The notes under the pieces: model-generated
The model's database searches: none
What the model was told of the DNA's origin: nothing
The model's input: only the letters and a program-made list of their open reading frames with translations
Position numbers and translations under genes: made by a program
Shown: positions 2,029-36,520 of the stretch, piece by piece
Layout of the letters: each line of letters opens with the position of its first letter
Position numbering within the stretch: the stretch's first letter is position 1
Origin: a virus
Lineage: Duplodnaviria; Heunggongvirae; Uroviricota; Caudoviricetes
IMG/VR virus record: IMGVR_UViG_2917398303_000004
Span: 1-40,414 of that record
Reading direction: 5' to 3' (one strand)
Length of the DNA: 40,414 nt

Positions 2029-3645
2029 TTACCATTCAAGTAGATTTCTGTCGGCAAAATTTCTATTGAAACTCGCACCATCAATATCAATAAAATGACT
2101 TGTGGATGGGTTCTCTATATTCCCATTCGACATATTTCCAAGATAGTTAACGGTGTTTTTTGAATTCGAACCGATATGCAATGGTGAATTTACTTGTGAA
2201 TACTTATTGCTTTTATATAAAGCGAGTAAATCATTAACCTTCGAAGTATCAAGTATCTGAGTTTTCTCAATGCTCAAGTTAGAGGCAAAGTTAGTAAAAA
2301 CAAATGAATTATTTTGTATTGTAGGAATGGTAAATCCAATTGGTGTAACATGCGAGTTTTTAACAGAAACGCATTGATTTATATATGGAAGGTCTAAAAC
2401 TAAGGTTTGCGTATTTAGATTAGATAGCAGATGAATATCTGATCTAACTAATACAACCTCTGGGGCCTGATAAGTTATTCCTAACTCACAGTTGGCCTCA
2501 TAATAGTTACTATCAAGATTAAGTGACTTGCAATTTACAGCAACTATTGCAGCCTTTTTATTCCCCTCCATGTTATTATAATTAACATTTATACTTAATC
2601 CTGCAAGCGGTGACGATGGGGTAATGGTAACCGCTACTCCATTATTGGCGTAAAATTTATTTCTTTGAACGTTAACATTATTGGCAATCCCAGTTATTTT
2701 GATGCTATCGCCAAAATTAGAGAAAACGCGACACCCTGTTATATCGTTACTATAGCCACCAAGATCAATGGCATATCCAATTGTGTTTGTAACAATAATA
2801 TTATCAATTTTAGTGTGATTACTCTCAGGAAGTAAAACTCCTTCCGTTAATCCATTACCATTAATACTGAAATCACTTAGCTCCAAAAAAGCAATTTCAC
2901 CAGATTGCTGGGTTATAAACGGAGATCCAGCCTTTGCTGAAAATAATGATGATTGATATGGCCCCTGACCTTCAATTTTTACTAGTTTGTCTTTTATGGT
3001 AATCCCAGGATCAACGTTAAACCCTCCCGCTGGTATTATAAACTTTGTTGCGCCAGAAGCATCATCAATAGCTTTCTGGAATGCTGCTTTGTTCTGAGCC
3101 CCAGTATTCCCGACTTTAAATCCGTAGTCAGAAAGCGTTACCAAATCCACAGCGAATTTGTCAGATACCGACATCGAAACGCCATCATTAAACTTAGGTG
3201 TATATGTAACGATGTCAGAACCCTTAATGGGGTTGTCACTGATTAAGTCTCCCCTCAGTGTAGCATCGCCAACACTCAACCATGCACCTGGCCCTATACC
3301 GCCTGTAGACGCAGGTGTTGACCCAGGAGGAACTAACTTAGGTAACAGCCCATCCCATCTGTAATATTCGCCATCACCATCAGGGAGCTTCCAGCGTAAT
3401 GCCTGATCTGCACGAGTTAAATCTGCACCGTCCTGGAATGAATCCATCATCGTCCATCCCATGGAGGATAGTTTTTCCTGATAACGCTTTTCCATTCCAT
3501 GCCATGTCAGTCTGGTCTTACCAAATCTATCAGGACATGTCTCATTTGATTGATCGTTTGAAAGGTAATCGAAGTTCTGCGCATTATCATACAAATCTTT
3601 TGCGGCAGAAGACCCCAGCGGATTGCCGGTGTTATAAGTAGTCAT
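2029..3645 (-). CDS. Tail fibre / tailspike protein (beta-helix-like repeats)
   Basis: Start at MTTYNTGNPLG with GAGG Shine-Dalgarno 6 nt upstream; repetitive N/G/S-rich beta-strand-like sequence; last gene of tail operon. Confidence 0.65.
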   Translation of the reverse strand: MTTYNTGNPLGSSAAKDLYDNAQNFDYLSNDQSNETCPDRFGKTRLTWHGMEKRYQEKLSSMGWTMMDSFQDGADLTRADQALRWKLPDGDGEYYRWDGLLPKLVPPGSTPASTGGIGPGAWLSVGDATLRGDLISDNPIKGSDIVTYTPKFNDGVSMSVSDKFAVDLVTLSDYGFKVGNTGAQNKAAFQKAIDDASGATKFIIPAGGFNVDPGITIKDKLVKIEGQGPYQSSLFSAKAGSPFITQQSGEIAFLELSDFSINGNGLTEGVLLPESNHTKIDNIIVTNTIGYAIDLGGYSNDITGCRVFSNFGDSIKITGIANNVNVQRNKFYANNGVAVTITPSSPLAGLSINVNYNNMEGNKKAAIVAVNCKSLNLDSNYYEANCELGITYQAPEVVLVRSDIHLLSNLNTQTLVLDLPYINQCVSVKNSHVTPIGFTIPTIQNNSFVFTNFASNLSIEKTQILDTSKVNDLLALYKSNKYSQVNSPLHIGSNSKNTVNYLGNMSNGNIENPSTSHFIDIDGASFNRNFADRNLLEW

Positions 3646-3701
3646 ATGGACCTCATAAACGAAAAACCACCGAAGTGGGTTTGTTAAGATGTTGTTTGTG
3701 A

Positions 3702-6419
3702 TTAAGCTACATTGCCGGGGTAGGAGGCATTGTCGTATTGATAGAAGGAGTCGCGGTATTCTTTTGCTGTAACCTGACATGTTCCGTCAGACTGCGGTGA
3801 AATCTCTGAGATTAGTGCGCTGTAACCAACACGTGAAGATTCGCAGAATATAAGGCGTGGAGGTTCGATAGATTGATCATTCAGTATGATGCCGATGAAC
3901 TCATCCTGTTCAGACACCGATAATTCATAATCACTAACCTTAGTAACTGGAAGCAAACCAGACGCTGAGCCATCCTGATAGCGAATTAACGCGCGCGGAT
4001 TGTTGAATGTCCAGTCAAGTGGTTCTGATACAGCGATAGTTGTTACACCACCTACAGTTCTCATATGATCAATCAAAGTGCTGATTGTTTTGCTACCTGG
4101 AATGTCATCAGTAAAAACAATTCGGTCGCCTACGTTATAGCAAAGCGCGTCCATTTCCGTGGTCGTGGTATGGGTCAAACGCTGCTGCCTGTACTTCATC
4201 AGCCTTCGCATGCCTATCTGATAAGCTCTGTCCTGATCAAGCACGCCATCAAGCGTATAATCTTCAACTTTAACTGGAGTAGGATTACCCGATGTTCTGC
4301 ACTGAACCGTCTCTTCAGCCCACGTAGTGCCATTAATGTAAGTGACATCCACGCCATCATAATCATCGGCTGATGGTGCAACGAAGGCCGTTTGAAGCGC
4401 TTCTGTCATTTCCTGCGGGCTAATGATTCCCGTCCACGTTTTCACCCCCTCCCTTCCAACAGAAGCCATACCATCAGACAGCAGGAAATAGCTTTTACCT
4501 GCACTGGTGACTTTCTGAAACATTTCAAGAGCGGAAACTGAGTCTGTTGTTGCGTAATCGAAAAACTCGCTATCAGGCGTCCAGTAAGATGATTCCAGCA
4601 TATCAATCGCTTCGTTATCCATCGCAAGCCCCAGCTCATTTCCAATGTGGTATAGCGCACCTGAAATGCTCCTGGAAATACCGGAATCATAAATGCGTGT
4701 GGCGACTACGTTGACACGGCGATCGGACTGAGCGGCAAGCTTTCCACCCGTTTCGACTGAGACAGCCATAGTGGTTACACCAGAGTATGATGATGGTCTT
4801 GAAAGCAACCTCCCCCTCAATGACTGCCAGTACATGTTATCCCTGCTGTTATCCTGACCTTGTTCGTTCGTTCTCCTGCATCTAACCTCTACCAAACCGG
4901 CTGATGCCAACGTGATACGCTCAGTAAAACCTAACCCATTAATATTTTGCTGATTGTAAGATCCAGTTTTGCTGGTCCAGCCTGAACCAGAACCGTAAAC
5001 ACGGTATTGAATTTCCCACTGAACAATCCTGTTCTGCTTCCTGCCCTTCTTGTTATACCCACAAATACCGTTTGGGAAGAAGAAATTGACCTCAAACATA
5101 TCAACGACTTCATTATCTGGACATGTGAGAAACGGCCCCATCCATTTATTGTTCTGATTTAATCCGTTTGCTTCAAAATCAAGCACTGTACGCGGCGTGA
5201 AACCTGGCCATTCCGGGTCAACAGCACCCTCTACAACACGCTGTAAAGTAACGGTGCTGGCGTCGATTTCCAGAATTTTATATTCGCTGCCTGAGTGCGA
5301 TACTGATAAACGAATGTATCCTTCAGGAATACCAGTAAATGCTGTTCCGGTTGCGCTTTCATACGCCAGAGCGATTGACGCCGTAACAACGTCTTCATCA
5401 ACAGGTTCTGAATGGGGGATGTAATCAGCAATGAAAAGCTGGTAATCGATACTGTTGTACCAGAGAGTAACTGGCATACCGATGTATGGAGCAATCTCTT
5501 CCAGTGTGTCACTGGTTATTCTGCTGTATGCGCCATCATTGGTGACAACATAAGAATCTGGAACAATCAGTTCAACAATTGCACCTTCTGTCCATGAGTC
5601 AGGAAGGTCGTTTGTATCAGTATTTCCATCGTCAGTACTAAGGCCGTTAAAGGTGATATCTGCACCAGATACCGTTAATGAATCTGCTACAACATCCTGT
5701 GTATCCGGGGCTGTCTGCGCCATATCAAGACCAGAACCAGATGCCGTTCCGCCTACTTCTGTTGAGTTGAACCAGTTTTCCGTTCGCTGATCACCGATAA
5801 TGTTCTGTCCTGGCTGATATACATTATAGGTAAACCCATCACCAAGAGAGGCGATTGGCGTTGACCCAACGCGAATGTCGCCATCACCAAATGAAAAACG
5901 GCCCATACCCAGCACCACAAACATTTCAACCGTCATTACAGTCGGATCATCAGTTGAGAATCTTGTTACTGGTTGCACTGCATAATCTGGATAAATACGG
6001 CTGCGACCAAATAACTCGCGTATCGGATCACCCAATTTCGCGTTATTCGCTTTAGCAGGATTTACATCAAGTGGATTACCTGTTCCTGATGAATAACCAC
6101 CAAGATCACCAACACCAGGAGCAAAGAATAAAGCGTAAGCTACAGACGCAACTGATACGGCAACTGCAATCCAGGCGAGAGCTACAGCACCGTAAGGAAC
6201 AGGATAAATTCTGACGTCGCTATCCGGGCTGATTGCGAACTCAAACCACGCCTGAGATGGAATATTTTTCCCATCAACGTCAATTGTGATCGGCTGTTTA
6301 ATATCAGGCTTATAGCCCTCTACTTTTTTTGACAGCCATTGATGTATGGTTATAGCGCCATGTTCATGTGTTTCCAGCGGTTCGCCGGGGATGCGGGAGG
6401 GGTAAATTCGGATAGTCAC
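3702..6419 (-). CDS. Tail tip / host-specificity (central fibre, J-like) protein
   Basis: 905-aa protein immediately downstream of NlpC/P60 tail assembly gene and upstream of tail fibre; start overlaps upstream stop. Confidence 0.6.
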   Translation of the reverse strand: MTIRIYPSRIPGEPLETHEHGAITIHQWLSKKVEGYKPDIKQPITIDVDGKNIPSQAWFEFAISPDSDVRIYPVPYGAVALAWIAVAVSVASVAYALFFAPGVGDLGGYSSGTGNPLDVNPAKANNAKLGDPIRELFGRSRIYPDYAVQPVTRFSTDDPTVMTVEMFVVLGMGRFSFGDGDIRVGSTPIASLGDGFTYNVYQPGQNIIGDQRTENWFNSTEVGGTASGSGLDMAQTAPDTQDVVADSLTVSGADITFNGLSTDDGNTDTNDLPDSWTEGAIVELIVPDSYVVTNDGAYSRITSDTLEEIAPYIGMPVTLWYNSIDYQLFIADYIPHSEPVDEDVVTASIALAYESATGTAFTGIPEGYIRLSVSHSGSEYKILEIDASTVTLQRVVEGAVDPEWPGFTPRTVLDFEANGLNQNNKWMGPFLTCPDNEVVDMFEVNFFFPNGICGYNKKGRKQNRIVQWEIQYRVYGSGSGWTSKTGSYNQQNINGLGFTERITLASAGLVEVRCRRTNEQGQDNSRDNMYWQSLRGRLLSRPSSYSGVTTMAVSVETGGKLAAQSDRRVNVVATRIYDSGISRSISGALYHIGNELGLAMDNEAIDMLESSYWTPDSEFFDYATTDSVSALEMFQKVTSAGKSYFLLSDGMASVGREGVKTWTGIISPQEMTEALQTAFVAPSADDYDGVDVTYINGTTWAEETVQCRTSGNPTPVKVEDYTLDGVLDQDRAYQIGMRRLMKYRQQRLTHTTTTEMDALCYNVGDRIVFTDDIPGSKTISTLIDHMRTVGGVTTIAVSEPLDWTFNNPRALIRYQDGSASGLLPVTKVSDYELSVSEQDEFIGIILNDQSIEPPRLIFCESSRVGYSALISEISPQSDGTCQVTAKEYRDSFYQYDNASYPGNVA

Positions 6420-28986: not shown

Positions 28987-29376
28987 TCAGGCGGCTGCAC
29001 CCGCCATGGTTTCAAATCGGCTGATCGTTATCTCTACCCTTCCAGGCTTTACTACAGGCCCCCACTCGATTGCCATCCGTTTAACCTGACTGTCGTCTTC
29101 CCAGACTCTGGCATTCGTCAGTGCGTCGAACAGCGCTTTGTTGTAGTTGTCCAGATCCCGCCGTCTGTTATCTGGCGGGAAAAGAACTATGTTTACCTCA
29201 ACGTTGACGTTAACTGGTTTAGGTATACCGCCGTACTGCTCAACAACAGATGCGTAAACGTTCTTCTTGAACTTCCTACCCATCTCACTGATCAGATGCT
29301 TACCCTTTAACGCTCCACGGTCAGGGGACCGGTAATAGGTGTTAACTGTTGGCGGGAATGGCAACGTTAATTTCAT
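28987..29376 (-). CDS. rusA: Holliday junction resolvase RusA
   Basis: RRRDLDNYNKALFDALTNARVWEDDSQV matches RusA catalytic region; start at MKLTLPFPP. Confidence 0.85.
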   Translation of the reverse strand: MKLTLPFPPTVNTYYRSPDRGALKGKHLISEMGRKFKKNVYASVVEQYGGIPKPVNVNVEVNIVLFPPDNRRRDLDNYNKALFDALTNARVWEDDSQVKRMAIEWGPVVKPGRVEITISRFETMAGAAA

Positions 29377-29693
29377 GGCTGGACACCTCTCGCTTCCAGC
29401 CATGACAAGGCGCGTTCTCTTGAATCGCTATCACCGTTAATGAGTGACTTGATGATCGATATCGCGTCTACCTCATCGTTTGCTGAAATAACGGTAATCC
29501 CTCTGGAAACTCCAGGCGCAACTGAGATATATCCCTTCTTCGCTATGGCCTTCACATGCTCCGCTGCAGCGTTCGGTGATGAGCAACCAATCAGCCCAGC
29601 CAGTTCACATATCGTTGGAGGGAATCCGAACCGGCGCTGATAGTTCACGATCGAACCAAGTACTTCACTTTGTCTCACGGTAAGTTTGTTCAC
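29373..29693 (-). CDS. LexA N-terminal DNA-binding-domain-like protein lacking the S24 peptidase domain
   Basis: LTVRQSEVL...FGFPPTICELAGLIGCSSPNAAAEHVKAIAKKGYI...GVSRGITVI parallels LexA residues about 1-70; protein ends at 106 aa. Confidence 0.6.
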   Translation of the reverse strand: MNKLTVRQSEVLGSIVNYQRRFGFPPTICELAGLIGCSSPNAAAEHVKAIAKKGYISVAPGVSRGITVISANDEVDAISIIKSLINGDSDSRERALSWLEARGVQP

Positions 29694-29694
29694 T

Positions 29695-29946
29695 TCAGCG
29701 CTCCTTAATCTGCTTGTTCAGAATCCCGACTTCGAGATACAAATGAGATGGCGTAAAGCCAAGTTGCTTAACCATCCCCATGGCACCGTTAAAAATTGGC
29801 CTGGCTATTTCGTCACAATTCATACCTGGGTTAGCCTTGCGTTTAGCGGCTATTTCCTCGTTGCATCTTCTGGCGATGTTACGAAGCGCGTTTCGTGCTT
29901 CAACGTCCTGCATAAGCCACCTCCAGCAACGGAGCAGGTTTACCAA
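29695..29946 (-). CDS. Hypothetical protein
   Basis: 83-aa ORF (start uncertain) between methyltransferase and LexA-like gene. Confidence 0.4.
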   Translation of the reverse strand: MVNLLRCWRWLMQDVEARNALRNIARRCNEEIAAKRKANPGMNCDEIARPIFNGAMGMVKQLGFTPSHLYLEVGILNKQIKER

Positions 29947-30568
29947 CGTAACCAGGAAACATGATTACATCAGGGTTTTCTGCCTGATTTCCCCAGTGAT
30001 GCCAGCCGGGAACAGCACAGCGGCTGAACAACTCAATACGTGACACATCGCCGTATAATTGCTCCAGACGGTAACGCGCTTCTGCTGGCTTCTGGCTGTG
30101 TTCGCCGAGTGGGCTGTAGATAACCTGTTTTACGCTCGCGTTCTGACGCTCAAGACCTTTCCCTCTGGTGGCAATTAGCAGATCCTCGGTATTGGCACGG
30201 GTATAGTTACCACCGTTCATTCGGGTCTGAGCGTTCAACAGGTCGAGGAAGTCGTAAAAGTCCTCTACTCCACCAGCCTGAAGCGCTTTGTTGATGTGCT
30301 GCTCAGCCAGTGAGTTAAACTTCACCCAGGTGAATCCCTTCATGGTCCGAACCTTAAAACCCCATGCCTCAGCCAACTCAATCGCTTCGCGGGTGTGAGT
30401 ACCGGTGAACCACATGGCCAGAACGGAATCTTCCGCAGCCAGATCCCAGACAGGCAGGCGTTTTATGTCGATGAGTTTCATCGTGCCGTAATGGTTTTCC
30501 GCTGCTCCATTGCTGATGGTGTTCCCGTATTCCCACGGTGGATCGGCGTAAATCAGTGAATAGTTCAT
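29900..30568 (-). CDS. DNA N6-adenine methyltransferase, MT-A70 family
   Basis: DPPW motif (YADPPWEY) and HSQKP...ELFSR...PGWHHWGNQ segments. Confidence 0.85.
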   Translation of the reverse strand: MNYSLIYADPPWEYGNTISNGAAENHYGTMKLIDIKRLPVWDLAAEDSVLAMWFTGTHTREAIELAEAWGFKVRTMKGFTWVKFNSLAEQHINKALQAGGVEDFYDFLDLLNAQTRMNGGNYTRANTEDLLIATRGKGLERQNASVKQVIYSPLGEHSQKPAEARYRLEQLYGDVSRIELFSRCAVPGWHHWGNQAENPDVIMFPGYVGKPAPLLEVAYAGR

Positions 30569-31011
30569 TAACGGCCTCCCGAAAATCTACCAGCCAGATA
30601 GCATCCGTCTTCGGTAATAACTGCTGGTTTAGCCAGGCCAAGACAGCGCTGACGTTCCGCCAGAATAGCCGCCCTCTCTGATTCAATTGCTGATGCGCTG
30701 AACGCCTCCATGTAAATCGTCGCGGCACGATGAAAGAGTCCTTTCGACTCCAGACCTTTCGCCGTTTCCATCAGAGCACTTACTTCAGGAGTTGGTTCAA
30801 ATACCTCGAAGTGGCAATCTGCTGGCGGTTCTGCGTAGTAACGAAATTGGCGACCGTCACGTTTACGTGTTGCCAGTTCTGAACCATACAGGCGGCAAAC
30901 GGCGAGTTGGAGCCTGTCCTGGCTGAACTGGGTCAGACCTTCGATGATGTCCCTGGTCATTGAGCCGGGGTTCATGGCAATAAACATCTGGACCGTTTTC
31001 AGAATGCTCAT
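30568..31011 (-). CDS. Hypothetical protein in the helicase-loader (P) position
   Basis: 147-aa ORF translationally coupled to the O-like gene. Confidence 0.45.
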   Translation of the reverse strand: MSILKTVQMFIAMNPGSMTRDIIEGLTQFSQDRLQLAVCRLYGSELATRKRDGRQFRYYAEPPADCHFEVFEPTPEVSALMETAKGLESKGLFHRAATIYMEAFSASAIESERAAILAERQRCLGLAKPAVITEDGCYLAGRFSGGR

Positions 31012-31013
31012 CG

Positions 31014-31934
31014 TTACCCCCTGAACCCTGGTGGAATAGCGCTGTAATCAGTGTTCTTGAAGCTGGGTTTGAAGATGCCATCTTCACGGGCCCATTCCCC
31101 ATTCACTCGTTCTGGTCGGCCAGCTTTGTCCCAGTTATTTGCAGACTTGAGATATCCCGGGAACTTGGACGGCTGGAAAAGCGTCTGTGGTCGCAGGTAA
31201 TCAGACATCTTCAGGTCATCACCCCACTTCGCGTTGCAGTAATCCACCACCAGCGACAGCTCTTCAACGGTGAACCCTTCGCCGATTCGTGCCCGGATGT
31301 TTTGCAGTGACGTGTTTGAAACCTGGTAGCGTGAGTTCGTGACCTGGTTCAGGTGAACCAAAACCTGTTTAGCCTGATCAGTAATCAACACATCACGGTC
31401 TGGTTGCCCCGCAACCGGACAAGAGTCTTTACCTGTAATCTCTGTAGTACTCTCTGTTGTAATCTCTGTAGGATCATCAGTGCATTTTGACCTGATGACA
31501 GCGGTTCGTTTTGACTTGATGGAGCGTGTCACTTTGACCTCTTCCATCGTTTCATTTTGACCTGATGGAACAGCGCATTTTGACCTCTTCGATTCAGTCA
31601 CTTTGACTTCATCTAATAGCTCGCTTTCATAGTTGATTGTGTAGAAGTTGGTCATGTCGCGTTGAGACTTGTTCAGTTGTTCAATTTTGAGCACACCGAG
31701 GGTCTTCAGGCGGGTGAAGGTTCGCTTCAGAGTCGACTCTGACCAGAACGGGAACTGCTCCAACCACTGTTCAGTCGTGTTGTAAATCCAGCGAACACCG
31801 TCACGCTCCATGCCAGACGTTGTTTCTTTCAGCCAGTAGTTAATCTGCTGCAATGCAATCGCCTCATTCAGGCCAATGCTGTACGCAAGGTCAGGATTTA
31901 TCACTATTGGTCGGGATGTCATTAACAGGCTCAT
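31014..31934 (-). CDS. Replication initiator, lambda O-like, with conserved phage C-terminal domain
   Basis: C-terminal LVHLNQVTNSRYQ...EELSLVVDYCNAKW region typical of phage replication proteins; iterons embedded in the gene. Confidence 0.7.
   Translation of the reverse strand: MSLLMTSRPIVINPDLAYSIGLNEAIALQQINYWLKETTSGMERDGVRWIYNTTEQWLEQFPFWSESTLKRTFTRLKTLGVLKIEQLNKSQRDMTNFYTINYESELLDEVKVTESKRSKCAVPSGQNETMEEVKVTRSIKSKRTAVIRSKCTDDPTEITTESTTEITGKDSCPVAGQPDRDVLITDQAKQVLVHLNQVTNSRYQVSNTSLQNIRARIGEGFTVEELSLVVDYCNAKWGDDLKMSDYLRPQTLFQPSKFPGYLKSANNWDKAGRPERVNGEWAREDGIFKPSFKNTDYSAIPPGFRG
31430..31615. repeat. Origin-like iteron array inside the O-like gene: six copies of RYTTTGACYT at about 23-bp spacing plus two GTAATCTCTGTAG repeats
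   Basis: Copies seen starting near 31484, 31508, 31531, 31554, 31577, 31600. Confidence 0.6.
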
Positions 31935-32103
31935 TCGGACCCTCTATTTCCCTGAATTTACGCTGAAACTGTTCGAGAGGACTGAAGCACTCATGCTCGT
32001 ATCCGTCGCGCAGGTATATAACCCGTTGAGTTTCTGGCTCCCACCGGATAACCCTGACTGGGATGCCGTCGCTGTCTTTGAACCGTCTGTTGAGTGCTCG
32101 CAT
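31891..32103 (-). CDS. Hypothetical protein
   Basis: 70-aa ORF between cII-like and O-like genes. Confidence 0.4.
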   Translation of the reverse strand: MRALNRRFKDSDGIPVRVIRWEPETQRVIYLRDGYEHECFSPLEQFQRKFREIEGPNEPVNDIPTNSDKS

Positions 32104-32282
32104 TCGACCTTCTCCGCCTGGCCGTTGAAATCACCTACAACCCAATCGGCAAACTGGTAGCAGACAGGCTCAAAGCATCCGGATACCATTACCCCATACA
32201 CGAACTGCGCCGGACCTTTTCCACCCGGCATAGGTCGAGCAATAAGTTGCGACCTGCGGTACTGTGTTGTTACACTGTTCAT
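31944..32282 (-). CDS. Hypothetical ORF (overlaps 31891-32103 in another frame; only the 5' part may be genuine)
   Basis: ORF track only. Confidence 0.2.
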   Translation of the reverse strand: MNSVTTQYRRSQLIARPMPGGKGPAQFVYGVMVSGCFEPVCYQFADWVVGDFNGQAEKVECEHSTDGSKTATASQSGLSGGSQKLNGLYTCATDTSMSASVLSNSFSVNSGK

Positions 32283-32496
32283 GCGTTAGTTTCTCCACTG
32301 AATACGACACGCCACGACGCCAGGAGCTGCACACTCGCTGGCGTCACTTCTTTTGACGGCGGCTGAATAAGGCCACAATCGCGCGAATTTCTTCTTCACG
32401 TGCTGCCAGATGGCGGCGGTGCTGTTCCTGAATTTCTTCGGCTTCATGCTTTTCAATCACTCCATCCTCAAGCGCCTTCTGGATAATCTGATCCAC

Positions 32497-32838
32497 CTAC
32501 CCTCTTGCAGCTGCTGTACGCATTGCACGACTGAACAAATCAACACGGTCAAGATCTTCCAGGCTTGGTACGTCCACCAGCAGTGCGCCGCGACGCTTGG
32601 CAAAGTAGTCGGCAACGAATGACGTGTTGGAAATGTCCTCCATCGCTTCCAGCTCAGTGACCTCAAAGAAACGACAACCGTTTTTCTCGTAAAGGTTGTT
32701 GTTGAATTGGGTTTCTGACATGCCCAACGCACCAGCCATAGCCTGACGGCCTCCGGGGTACGCCTTACACATCGCTTTCACCACGTCTTTCAGGGTTTGC
32801 TCTACCATCTTTTTTTTCCTTTGGTAGTTATCAATCAA
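32497..32838 (-). CDS. cII-like regulatory protein (HTH)
   Basis: 113-aa ORF immediately downstream of cro; AMAGALGMSETQF HTH-like segment. Confidence 0.45.
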   Translation of the reverse strand: MIDNYQRKKKMVEQTLKDVVKAMCKAYPGGRQAMAGALGMSETQFNNNLYEKNGCRFFEVTELEAMEDISNTSFVADYFAKRRGALLVDVPSLEDLDRVDLFSRAMRTAAARG

Positions 32839-33097: not shown

Positions 33098-33128
33098 GTT
33101 ATCTCCAGTGACTAAGCTTGCATCAATA

Positions 33129-33141
33129 CTACTTATAGTAG
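33129..33141. promoter_or_regulatory. OR operator palindrome CTACTTATAGTAG
   Basis: Inverted repeat CTACT-N3-AGTAG in the cro-cI intergenic region; same motif recurs at 34000-34012. Confidence 0.55.
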
Positions 33142-33166
33142 CAATTATTGGCAACTTAAAATAGAA

Positions 33167-33886
33167 ATGACAACTATGCCTTGTGCGCTTAATCTTCTAC
33201 TTATGGTGGAAAATGCTAAATACAAAGACTTTGCCGACAGGCTAAACAAGTCTCTCCAAGAGCAATCAATTGGAGTTAAAGAATTGTCAGAGTTCAGTGG
33301 TGTCTCATATGAGATGGCGCGACGCTATACTCTTGGTACTGCAAAACCACGAGATGAAAAGATGATTCGAATTGCAGACAGGCTTGCCGTATCCCCTGCT
33401 TATCTTGATTACGGGGTACCTGTTAATGGCGGTGATGCGCCCGCTACCGGGACGGTTAGAATTCAGCAATTGGATGTACATGCATCAGCCGGTTCGGGAT
33501 ATATCAATCAACCGTTTCCAACGATTGTCAGCTCGATAGAAATACCAGAAGATAGGATTTTCGAATTGTTTGGCCGGAGAAGCTTAGATGGTATCGTGAT
33601 GATCAACGTAGATGGCGACAGTATGATGCCTACGTTGTGCCCTAAGGATCTGCTCTTCATTGATAGTAAAGTTGAGCAATTCAGTGGAGATGGTGTTTAC
33701 GTGTTCAACTTCGAGGACAGTACCTTTGTAAAAAGACTACAAAAAGTTAAAGGTCGTCGTCTGGCTGTCCTATCAGACAATGAACACTATCCTCCCTTCT
33801 TCATAGAAGAACACGAAATGAATGAGGTTTACATCTTCGGCAAACTTATCAGATGTTTACCTCTGAAAATGATAGAGTTTGGATAA
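33167..33886 (+). CDS. cI: CI-like repressor (HTH plus S24 LexA-type autopeptidase domain)
   Basis: N-terminal HTH, C-terminal GDSM Ser motif and downstream Lys; possibly leaderless start at 33167. Confidence 0.8.
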   Translation: MTTMPCALNLLLMVENAKYKDFADRLNKSLQEQSIGVKELSEFSGVSYEMARRYTLGTAKPRDEKMIRIADRLAVSPAYLDYGVPVNGGDAPATGTVRIQQLDVHASAGSGYINQPFPTIVSSIEIPEDRIFELFGRRSLDGIVMINVDGDSMMPTLCPKDLLFIDSKVEQFSGDGVYVFNFEDSTFVKRLQKVKGRRLAVLSDNEHYPPFFIEEHEMNEVYIFGKLIRCLPLKMIEFG

Positions 33887-34574: not shown

Positions 34575-34653
34575 GCGGCATTAGCTCAGTTGGATAGAGC
34601 AACGGCCTTCTAAGCCGTGTGGGTCGCAGGTTCGAATCCTGCATGCTGCACCA
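34575..34653 (+). tRNA. tRNA-Arg (anticodon UCU) with encoded CCA
   Basis: Hand-folded cloverleaf: 7-bp acceptor, D-arm, anticodon stem ACGGC/GCCGT with loop CTTCTAA, 7-nt variable loop, T-arm GCAGG-TTCGAAT-CCTGC; resembles argU-type tRNA. Confidence 0.8.
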
Positions 34654-34997: not shown

Positions 34998-35480
34998 ATG
35001 ACGACCACACAGAACGTCACTGAGTTACAACCACGTATGACAAGAGAGCAACTGATCGATGCAGCCCGTAAAGCGGCCCCTCTCCTTCCGGTTGCTTACC
35101 GCGGGATCATGACCGAACTGGCTAACCGTCTTGATATCGTCAGCGTGGCGCTTTGCGAGTCAATGGAACAGCGTAAAGCACTGGCCATCGAGAACACCGT
35201 TTTACGAGACGATGTTAATTGTTGGGCCAAAGAGTGCGACCGCATCGTTGAACGTCATACCAAATCGCCGACCAATATGCACATGCTGGAGGCGCAGAGA
35301 GAATTACGCGAGTTAACTCCGGTAACCGATCAGGTTATTCGCGATATCCAAGCCACTGGCGTGGAAAAGTTCGCAAACGTCACTATTGCCATTGGGAAAG
35401 AAGAGCAACAAGAAACCATTGTTTACGCTGGGAATCAGGCTCTCTTATTCGCTAACCAACTCCGTGAAGGTATTGCGTAA
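34998..35480 (+). CDS. Hypothetical early protein
   Basis: Start at MTTTQ with GGAG Shine-Dalgarno; TAATG coupling to downstream ParB-like gene. Confidence 0.5.
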   Translation: MTTTQNVTELQPRMTREQLIDAARKAAPLLPVAYRGIMTELANRLDIVSVALCESMEQRKALAIENTVLRDDVNCWAKECDRIVERHTKSPTNMHMLEAQRELRELTPVTDQVIRDIQATGVEKFANVTIAIGKEEQQETIVYAGNQALLFANQLREGIA

Positions 35481-36520
35481 TGGCAGCTAACTCATTCAAA
35501 CAGATGTCCCGTGACGGAACCATCAAGCGCACCGATACCGGGATGTTTATCAGCCTTGAACATATCCACGTGCGTGAAGGTTTCAACAAGCGTGAAGACG
35601 ACGAACGCACCCGCCAGGCAGATGATGACCTGTTTAACTATCTGATGAACGGCGGCACCGTCCCTCCACTGGAGGTTATCGCACGTGATGAAGGTGGTGT
35701 GTGGGTTGTTGAAGGCCACCGCCGTCGCCGTTGCTATGCGCGTTGTGCTGAAGCTGGTAAGCCAGTAGACCGTATTCATATCATGCCGTTTAACGGTAAC
35801 GATGTGCAGCGTCTGGCTCGCATCATGACCAGCAATAACCAACTCCCCCTTTCCGATATTGAACAGGCTGCTGTTATTCAGGAGCTTCATAACGCTTTCA
35901 ACCAGACCACCAGCGAGATTGCAAAGCTGGTCAATAAATCCGTGGCTACTGTTGAGAAGTTGCTCACTCTGAGTACCGCTAATTATGACGTTCAGCAGGA
36001 AGTTAAATCTGGTGCCGTATCTGTTGATGTTGCTGTTGACCGCGTTCGCGAGTTTGGCGAACAGGCTGGTGAAGTTCTCCAGCACGATAAAGCCGTAGCC
36101 GCCGCCCAGGGGAAAGCAAAGGTTACGCGCAGTCCTATCGCTCCGGAACTCAACATTAAAAGTGCTCGCCGTTTCGTGGAGTTAATGGCCATGGCGACGA
36201 TCAGCGATGAAGGCGTATTCACTTTGCAAGGCACGGCACTGGCTGAAGCTCTGGTAATAATCGACGAACACAAAGCCATTGCTGAAGCTCGCGAAACCTA
36301 TCGCCTATCACAGCCAATTCCTACGACAGAGATTATCGGGAAAGTGCTGTATGTGAAGCTGGACGGTAAGGAAATCGGCTCGGCAATAATTTATCGCGGT
36401 AAGAACGTCACGCTCGACCTGGGTGACAGAAAAATCATCGCCAGCCAGTCAAAAGCAGTGGCCCACTTCGTTAAACAACACAAACTTCAGCAGGTACATA
36501 CCAATGCAAACGATCAATAA
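35480..36520 (+). CDS. ParB-like nuclease-domain / HTH protein
   Basis: VVEGHRRRRCYA (ParB GxRR box) followed by HTH-like segment. Confidence 0.65.
   Translation: MAANSFKQMSRDGTIKRTDTGMFISLEHIHVREGFNKREDDERTRQADDDLFNYLMNGGTVPPLEVIARDEGGVWVVEGHRRRRCYARCAEAGKPVDRIHIMPFNGNDVQRLARIMTSNNQLPLSDIEQAAVIQELHNAFNQTTSEIAKLVNKSVATVEKLLTLSTANYDVQQEVKSGAVSVDVAVDRVREFGEQAGEVLQHDKAVAAAQGKAKVTRSPIAPELNIKSARRFVELMAMATISDEGVFTLQGTALAEALVIIDEHKAIAEARETYRLSQPIPTTEIIGKVLYVKLDGKEIGSAIIYRGKNVTLDLGDRKIIASQSKAVAHFVKQHKLQQVHTNANDQ

Follow-up and report, generated by a model that had tools for sequence, protein, structure and literature searches.

This study concerns the replication initiator gene of a lambdoid prophage in a 40,414-nucleotide (nt) stretch of DNA (IMG/VR record IMGVR_UViG_2917398303_000004), referred to here as the window. 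The segment 31398-31613, located inside the gene of its own initiator, is very probably the vegetative replication origin of this prophage. The window origin is an uncharacterised member of a well-known class of phage origins that are embedded in the initiator gene. The prophage in the window looks complete (integrase, repressor, Q-like, and structural genes were identified), and its host is probably Citrobacter-like. On the gene strand, which is the - strand of the window, the part coding for the N-terminal domain (N-domain) is followed by six iterons, three 12-nt repeats (12-mers), a palindrome, and the part coding for the C-terminal domain (C-domain).

In an earlier note on this DNA, six copies of RYTTTGACYT(G/C)(A/T)T spaced about 23 bp apart had been reported within the coding sequence of the initiator. 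Exact pattern search and repeat finding agree with that count. Six exact matches to RYTTTGACYTSWT were found in the window, all on the + strand (starts at 31484, 31508, 31531, 31554, 31577, and 31600; the array ends at 31612), whereas dinucleotide-preserving shuffles of the window gave a mean of 0.06 and a maximum of 1 match. The start-to-start distances, in + strand order, are 24, 23, 23, 23, and 23 nt. The 23-nt register was recovered independently by a repeat finder, a check proposed in the same note, as families at 23-nt spacing (D1-D4) and a 46-nt super-period. No further cluster of the iteron motif was detected outside the initiator gene in a window-wide scan. All repeats lie within the - strand open reading frame (ORF) 31014-31934, and the iterons occupy nt 322-452 of the 921-nt gene. 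On the gene strand the iteron cores read RGTCAAARYG (31599-31608, 31576-31585, 31553-31562, 31530-31539, 31507-31516, and 31483-31492). A dyad, GTCA-N3-TGAC, is clear in two iterons; its right arm is degenerate in the other four. The six cores have their first base at codon positions 3, 2, 1, 3, 2, and 2 and so fall in all three frames, which identifies a DNA repeat, not a peptide repeat. A protein-level tandem repeat as the source of the iterons was ruled out by this distribution over three frames and by the 23-nt period.

The earlier note had also reported two repeat copies upstream of the iterons. Two exact copies of GTAATCTCTGTAG were indeed found (31435-31447 and 31459-31471), but there are three 12-nt units in all: on the - strand, 31434-31469 reads ACAGAGATTACA / ACAGAGAGTACT / ACAGAGATTACA, the middle copy being degenerate. 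Because the gene runs on the - strand, the 12-mers are downstream of the iterons, not upstream. No other 40-bp duplex of the gene is less stable than the 12-mer array (free energy, dG, -46.7 versus a mean of -54.5, standard deviation 3.7), which stands at the 97th percentile of instability in the whole window; the least stable 40-bp segment of the gene is 61% A+T and has 65% purine on the gene strand. As in ori-lambda, the low-stability tract is on the promoter-distal side of the iterons, although it is weaker than the lambda tract. When the stretch of 12-mers and palindrome was folded as single-stranded DNA, it was no more stable than shuffles (z -0.53).

The palindrome, a third origin element, was absent from the earlier note. 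Like the window, 17 enterobacterial relatives carry the form GTCMGGTTGC-NNN-GCAACCMGAC after the 12-mers, with varying loop and flanks. Compensatory changes of the arms were observed in several of these (GGCTGC/GCAGCC in locus L012, GGTTTC/GAAACC in L014 and L017, GGTTCC/GGAAAC in L016), and they alter the encoded amino acids on both sides. In the alignment 99.4% of the palindrome cells are paired, two pairs have been changed on both sides, and the observed covariation score was reached by none of 500 shuffles. Relatives with a C-terminus of the lambda-O type have no palindrome. In lambda ori and in phage 80alpha a palindrome is present at the equivalent place. The positions of these elements and of the neighboring features are given in Table 1.

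Table 1. Features of the initiator gene, its origin, and the neighboring early region (window coordinates)
Feature	Position	Strand	Basis or putative role
Replication initiator gene, 306 amino acids, whole origin inside	31014-31934	-	ORF, PHROG, Pfam
Six-iteron array, 23-24-nt units	31483-31613	-	putative initiator-binding sites; position kept in homologues
Three tandem 12-nt units ACAGAGAWTACW, peptide TEITTESTTEIT	31434-31469	-	putative DNA-unwinding or helicase-entry element
Palindrome GTCCGGTTGC-GGG-GCAACCAGAC, 10-nt arms, 3-nt loop	31398-31407 / 31411-31420	-	repeat finder (I7)
Ser67 codon, putative specificity residue, first turn of recognition helix	31734-31736	-	mutual information
N-terminal winged-helix domain, residues 9-108	31611-31910	-	AlphaFold2 block with predicted local distance difference test (pLDDT) 62-85, Foldseek
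C-terminal helical domain, residues 180-270	31125-31397	-	Pfam, BLASTP, AlphaFold2 block with pLDDT 81-93
pR-like promoter candidates, between cI-like and cro-like genes	33126-33173	-	consensus scan only, 10/12 and 9/12
PerC-like transcriptional activator, next gene after initiator	30568-31011	-	phrog_1324, 3.1e-51
MT-A70 adenine methyltransferase	29900-30568	-	downstream of PerC-like gene
Small ORF without assignment	29695-29946	-	downstream of MT-A70 gene
Protein consisting of a LexA-type DNA-binding domain only	29373-29693	-	downstream of initiator

Over about 150 homologues belonging to several phyla, the array is conserved in position and variable in sequence. A pattern scan of one genome per species yielded 80 loci encoding a relative of the N-domain, and annotated phage and E. 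coli loci brought the set to 85. In most of them three to seven repeats at 22-24-nt spacing were detected at gene nt 305-475. The hosts belong to Enterobacterales, Pseudomonas, Bacillus and relatives, Staphylococcus, and Lactobacillaceae. The iteron sequence varies by lineage (GGTCAAAATGACC, GGGCAAATTGCCC, GGACAAATTGTCC, GTTCAAAATGAAC, CCCAAAATGGG); its general form is NNN-CAAAWTG-N'N'N', often a perfect palindrome (GGTCAAAATGACC, GGGCAAATTGCCC, GGACAAATTGTCC, GTTCAAAATGAAC, GCCCAAAATGGGC). The comparison with related replicons suggested in the earlier note thus gave a repeat whose position is kept while its sequence changes with lineage. Selection on the DNA itself was seen at third codon positions in a gap-free alignment of 12 enterobacterial genes: their mean pairwise identity rises from 0.595 in the N-domain to 0.803 in the spacers, 0.846 in the iteron cores, and 0.974 in the 12-mers. 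The codon periodicity of substitution is lost in the origin, as expected where a DNA-level constraint overlies the coding constraint.

It had further been claimed that the iterons define the specificity of the replicon, and the covariation between initiator and iteron that this claim predicts was observed. The iteron base directly 5' of CA covaries with residue 67 of the protein, which is part of the motif FPFW-S-x-[S/D/N/K]-T. Among 46 loci curated by hand, T was paired with Ser in 21/24, G with Asp in 14/14, C with Asn in 6/6, and A with Lys or Arg in 2/2, and the mutual information at residue 67 (1.549 of 1.592 bits) was the highest of 110 positions, the next value being 1.045. The analysis was repeated with automatic site calling on all 150 ORFs recognised by a hidden Markov model (HMM) of the N-domain, including 74 from viral contigs. 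For the 95 unique N-domains among them, T went with Ser in 54/61, G with Asp in 17/18, C with Asn in 7/9, and A with Lys in 7/7, and residue 67 was again the best N-domain column (1.369 of 1.464 bits); these statistics, like those on codon choice below, assume independent sequences and are therefore optimistic. All four pairings recur in two to four separate clusters at 60% identity, and closely related Pantoea proteins show Asp with GGGCA versus Lys with GGACA. Since about 125 nt separate codon 67 from the first iteron core, overlap of coding sequence and site cannot account for the covariation. The covariation is the signature of co-evolution of protein and site, and sequence comparison argues strongly that the protein binds the repeats in its own gene.

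The 12-nt units are nearly invariant across phyla. They were found in nearly all homologues, in two to five copies after the iterons and always in the same frame, encoding the peptide TE[I/N/T/S]TTE. Since they are always in frame, the frame alone cannot tell selection at the DNA level from selection at the protein level; codon choice can. Loci for this purpose were retrieved by N-domain peptide patterns or gene similarity, not via the 12-mer motif. The Glu codon within the motif was GAG in 127/129 cases, versus 504/1150 (44%) in the remainder of these genes. GAA dominates in low-GC relatives, mostly Firmicutes; here GAG was used at 36/37 motif positions versus 146/449 elsewhere. The Thr codon within the motif was ACA or ACT in 250/252 cases, versus 417/965 elsewhere.

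Scanning of viral contigs with a DNA pattern detected the double 12-nt unit in at least 120 stretches. Among the matches listed, 74 fall in ORFs bearing an N-domain of the window type; most of the others are located mid-gene in initiator-like ORFs of 257-489 amino acids with an N-domain that is not recognised by the HMM and with C-domains that include DnaB_2, DnaT, and lambda-O-like types. Tandem ACWGAGANTACW (peptide TEITTE) was seen mid-gene in viral contigs L094, L098, L106, L118, L129, L137, and others; the peptides upstream of it in those ORFs resemble iterons translated in several frames. The ACWGAGANTACW array is common to initiator genes that differ in their N-domains and C-domains (Phg_2220_C, lambda-O-type, DnaB_2, DnaT). 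From its occurrence in several initiator families we infer that it is an origin element common to them, functioning in unwinding or helicase entry; the encoded peptide may have a role as well. No description of the 12-mer array as an origin element, or of the rule relating residue and base, was found in the literature searched, and queries with the motif strings TEITTE, TENTTE, ACAGAGAATAC, and GGTCAAAATGACC returned no relevant paper among the 15 top-ranked of 511 matches.

The N-domain and the repeats appear to have been inherited together. In Klebsiella phages, homology covers only the first 538 nt of the gene (87% identity) and ends a few bases past the palindrome. In E. albertii, E. ruysiae, and related loci (L020-L023) it stops right after the 12-mers, and a C-terminus of the lambda-O type continues. 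Breakpoints after the palindrome or the 12-mers indicate that the N-domain and the repeats were inherited as one module and recombined with different C-domains. Close relatives of this module are fused to a lambda-O-type C-terminus in P0050, P0092, and L023. Module swapping around the N-domain and origin is the classical picture for lambdoid O genes. The recurrent joints between N- and C-modules correspond to window positions 31397/31398 and 31433/31434 (loci L001, L002, L009, and L020-L023). The Klebsiella phage homologues L001 (PQ351753) and L002 (MK448232), both at 3001-3915, carry the label 'hypothetical protein' or 'transcriptional regulator', and the deposited Klebsiella phage records with a homologous initiator contain no origin annotation.

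The initiator was matched by phrog_428 'replication initiation protein' (2.7e-65), in its N-terminal part by phrog_6493 'DnaD-like helicase loader' (1.5e-33), and by three PHROG 'replication initiation O-like' families (4.6e-15 for phrog_391, to 6e-7). The C-terminal part contains the Pfam domain Phg_2220_C (PF09524) at residues 191-263 (2.9e-21, 75.7 bits versus a cut-off of 27); the score for NCBIfam TIGR02220 was slightly below its cut-off (63.5 versus 66.65 bits). No other Pfam family, including Phage_rep_O and RepA_N, was detected at E<=0.01, and no sequence in PDB matched at E<=1. An AlphaFold2 model, built on 15 sequences, predicts a recognition helix at residues 66-78, a wing at 82-100, and a disordered stretch at 109-174 (pLDDT <50). 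It is encoded by nt 322-537 (residues 108-179), a segment that comprises the iterons, the 12-mers, and the greater part of the palindrome. The best Foldseek matches of the N-domain were 4pql, 5kbj, and 4pt7, which are N-domains of initiators or Rep proteins (E 1e-2 to 5e-2, probability 0.97-1.0); their TM (template modelling) scores are only 0.44-0.49, and generic winged helix-turn-helix proteins of the MarR/PadR type score alike, with weak E-values. No convincing structural neighbor of the C-domain, which would recruit the replisome, was found in the structure search. The closest full-length copy of the initiator is from Citrobacter portucalensis (96%), with E. coli prophages at up to 95%; a full-length close copy is present in 5/5,426 complete E. 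coli genomes. The last seven codons (31017-31037, - strand) encode a tail, (I/V)P.GFRG, which is kept in most enterobacterial relatives, among them some with a lambda-O-type C-domain (such as P0092 and L023), but not in others (P0050, P0060). A host replication protein may dock on this short tail; if so, the lack of a P-like loader could be accounted for.

The lambda paradigm of an origin within the O gene, invoked in the earlier note, fits the window with respect to mid-gene iterons, low-stability tract, and position. The lambda iterons are at nt 349-433 of the 900-nt O gene. Each origin has four to six direct repeats that show dyad symmetry and are A-rich in the center, about 20-24 nt apart, followed by a low-stability, purine-rich tract and a palindrome (PMC7466680). 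Both initiators have two domains, and both genes stand in a cI / cro / cII / initiator context. The AT-rich tract of lambda is the site of O-dependent unwinding and is bound by O as single-stranded DNA (PMC7466680, citing Dodson 1986 and Learn 1997); the 12-mer array is its positional equivalent. The window differs in having a sequence-conserved 12-nt array instead of a generic AT-rich tract, in its unrelated iterons (RGTCAAARYG versus TCCCTCAAAACGAGGGA), and in the lack of a P gene or any loader after the initiator. Early comparisons of lambdoid origins found variable iterons next to a conserved AT-rich tract, and the window fits that description.

The label 'O-like', also taken from the earlier note, is supported by the two-domain architecture; it is not supported by a match to Phage_rep_O, and direct homology to lambda O was rejected. 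The protein was aligned by hhalign with C-terminal columns of lambda O only (79% probability), a match attributed to the presence of relatives with a lambda-type C-terminus in the alignment. Lambda O has been described by HHpred as HTH_36 plus PF09524 (PMC5509034), and PF09524 is the family matched directly by the window protein.

Homology of the C-domain was observed with initiators of phages from Gram-positive hosts. SPP1 G38P shares 40% identity over 88 residues (E 4e-16); the BLASTP alignment covers only residues 185-266, and the N-domain was not aligned. According to PMC5499656, oriL of SPP1 is embedded in gene 38, and in our own reading of the gene 38 sequence, short tandem repeats followed by an AT-rich stretch are located mid-gene, just upstream of the part coding for the C-domain. 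The hosts of SPP1 and of the window prophage belong to different phyla, and SPP1 carries the loader G39P and the helicase G40P next to gene 38, whereas the window has neither. In the Staphylococcus phage 80alpha, gp20 (ORF20) has a homologous C-domain (33%, E 2e-9, BLASTP). A rep_origin is annotated inside gp20 in the 80alpha record, and the order is again iterons, AT-rich repeats, and a palindrome (GTCGGG-CAA-CCCGAC). Deletion of gp20 could not be complemented in trans (PMC5499656). In contrast to the window, the 80alpha gene has a different N-domain and different iterons, its AT-rich repeats (ACTAATAAT...) differ from the ACAGAGAWTAC units, and a DnaC-like loader, gp21, follows gp20. Plasmid initiators of the RepA_N type gave the best, though weak, structural matches of the N-domain and lack a match at the sequence level. 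They appear to share the design of a winged-helix N-domain, iterons in the part coding for the linker, and a host-specific C-domain; they serve Gram-positive plasmid replicons, whereas the window is a phage replicon. We take 4pql, 5kbj, and 4pt7 to be staphylococcal RepA. RepA_N origins are generally described as lying inside repA.

The early genes are arranged as a divergently oriented cI-like gene on the + strand, encoding a repressor of the S24 type, followed by cro-like, cII-like, DUF4222, and initiator genes on the - strand. A transcript from the pR-like candidates would cross the origin. The DUF4222 gene (31891-32103, - strand) overlaps the start of the initiator by 44 nt, and this overlap is annotated in all E. 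coli relatives. The plasmid replication assay suggested in the earlier note, with the O-like and downstream genes, starts from a wrong assumption, as the downstream gene encodes a PerC-like activator, not a P-like loader. The gene set at 29373-31011 is unusual at the place where lambdoid phages carry P and nin genes. Genes for RusA, an antirepressor, DUF968, and a Q-like antiterminator are located further downstream. No P-like, DnaC-like, helicase, or primase gene could be detected in the early regions of the window, and the initiator is the sole recognisable replication gene of the prophage. Weigel and Seitz are said to have described 'initiator-solo' phage replication modules in 2006, which would fit this case; our literature search on such modules returned nothing usable. 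A DnaA-dependent origin was ruled out, as the DnaA-box consensus TTWTNCACA has no match on either strand of the 40.4 kb (shuffles give 4.1 +/- 1.9), and no Rfam family was matched at E<=1 in 30500-32500. Two other genes were observed in this part of the prophage. A tRNA-Arg gene (anticodon TCT; 34575-34653, + strand) is located between the cI-like gene and the leftward early genes, and a ParB-like gene (35480-36520, + strand; phrog_1033 7.6e-82, Pfam HTH_ParB) is present in the leftward early region of this integrating prophage.

Based on these data, the following sequence of events can be proposed. Once derepressed, the early operon of the rightward type (cro-like, cII-like, DUF4222, initiator) would be transcribed across the origin. 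Dimers of the winged-helix N-domain would bind the six iterons at dyad-like GTCA-N3-TGAC sites, and residue 67, in the first turn of the recognition helix, would read the base directly 5' of the CAAA core. An O-some-like complex formed in this way may destabilise the adjoining 12-mer array, and the Phg_2220_C domain would then bring in host replication proteins. As there is no phage loader or helicase gene, host DnaB would be recruited directly, with or without DnaC.

Other explanations of the repeats have to be considered. They could be by-products of slippage duplications in a low-complexity linker, with no function at the DNA level; the region does encode a disordered linker, and the 12-nt units are in frame and give the repeated peptide TEITTESTTEIT. 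We regard this as very improbable. A period of 23 nt is not divisible by 3 and the cores occupy all frames, third codon positions vary less in the repeats than in the folded N-domain, and the position of the array is kept across phyla while its sequence covaries with a distant residue. For the iterons, slippage is already contradicted by these data, and for the 12-mers it is opposed by the near-exclusive use of GAG for Glu (127/129 versus 44% elsewhere), which extends to low-GC relatives dominated by GAA. A different possibility is that the repeats are real initiator sites with a mainly regulatory role (autorepression, a transcriptional roadblock, or control of copy number and incompatibility) and that replication starts elsewhere. 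The covariation with residue 67 proves that protein and site co-evolve but not that an origin fires, and control functions of plasmid iterons are well established (PMC3401445), which favors this explanation. We nevertheless consider it unlikely, because the window has no second cluster of the iteron motif, the array always precedes low-stability 12-mers and often a palindrome, as in ori-lambda, and two proteins with a homologous C-domain, G38P and 80alpha gp20, carry in-gene origins (PMC5499656).

There is also a small chance, slightly greater than that of a purely regulatory role, that the segment is an origin by descent and now an inactive relic in a defective prophage. The scarcity of full-length close copies among complete E. 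coli genomes (5/5,426) and the absence of a loader gene point in that direction. On the other side, the initiator ORF is intact and 95-96% identical to the E. coli and Citrobacter copies, all six iterons, the 12-mers, and the palindrome are intact, and the prophage in the window looks complete. Lack of a loader is also seen in isolated Klebsiella phages with the same module: no helicase, primase, or loader is listed in the annotation of a complete 34.5-kb Klebsiella phage genome, and others likewise have no annotated loader or helicase. An origin within the initiator gene that serves vegetative replication is the interpretation we retain.

A broader claim can be put forward tentatively: the ACWGAGANTACW array is perhaps a sequence-specific, DNA-level origin element extending from Enterobacterales to Firmicutes, combined with a rule of one residue to one base that makes specificity readable from sequence. 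If true, the array suggests a common signal for single-strand binding, unwinding, or helicase entry, analogous to DnaA-trios. For a sequence-specific unwinding element in phage origins, the conserved 12-mers offer a concrete candidate. The present result places the origin and the specificity determinant of the prophage replicon, and it corrects the annotation of the Klebsiella phage homologues. Within the family, initiators and iterons form naturally matched pairs that follow a simple residue-to-base rule. An initiator without a loader could show how an organizer of the O/G38P type recruits the host helicase without a P-like partner.

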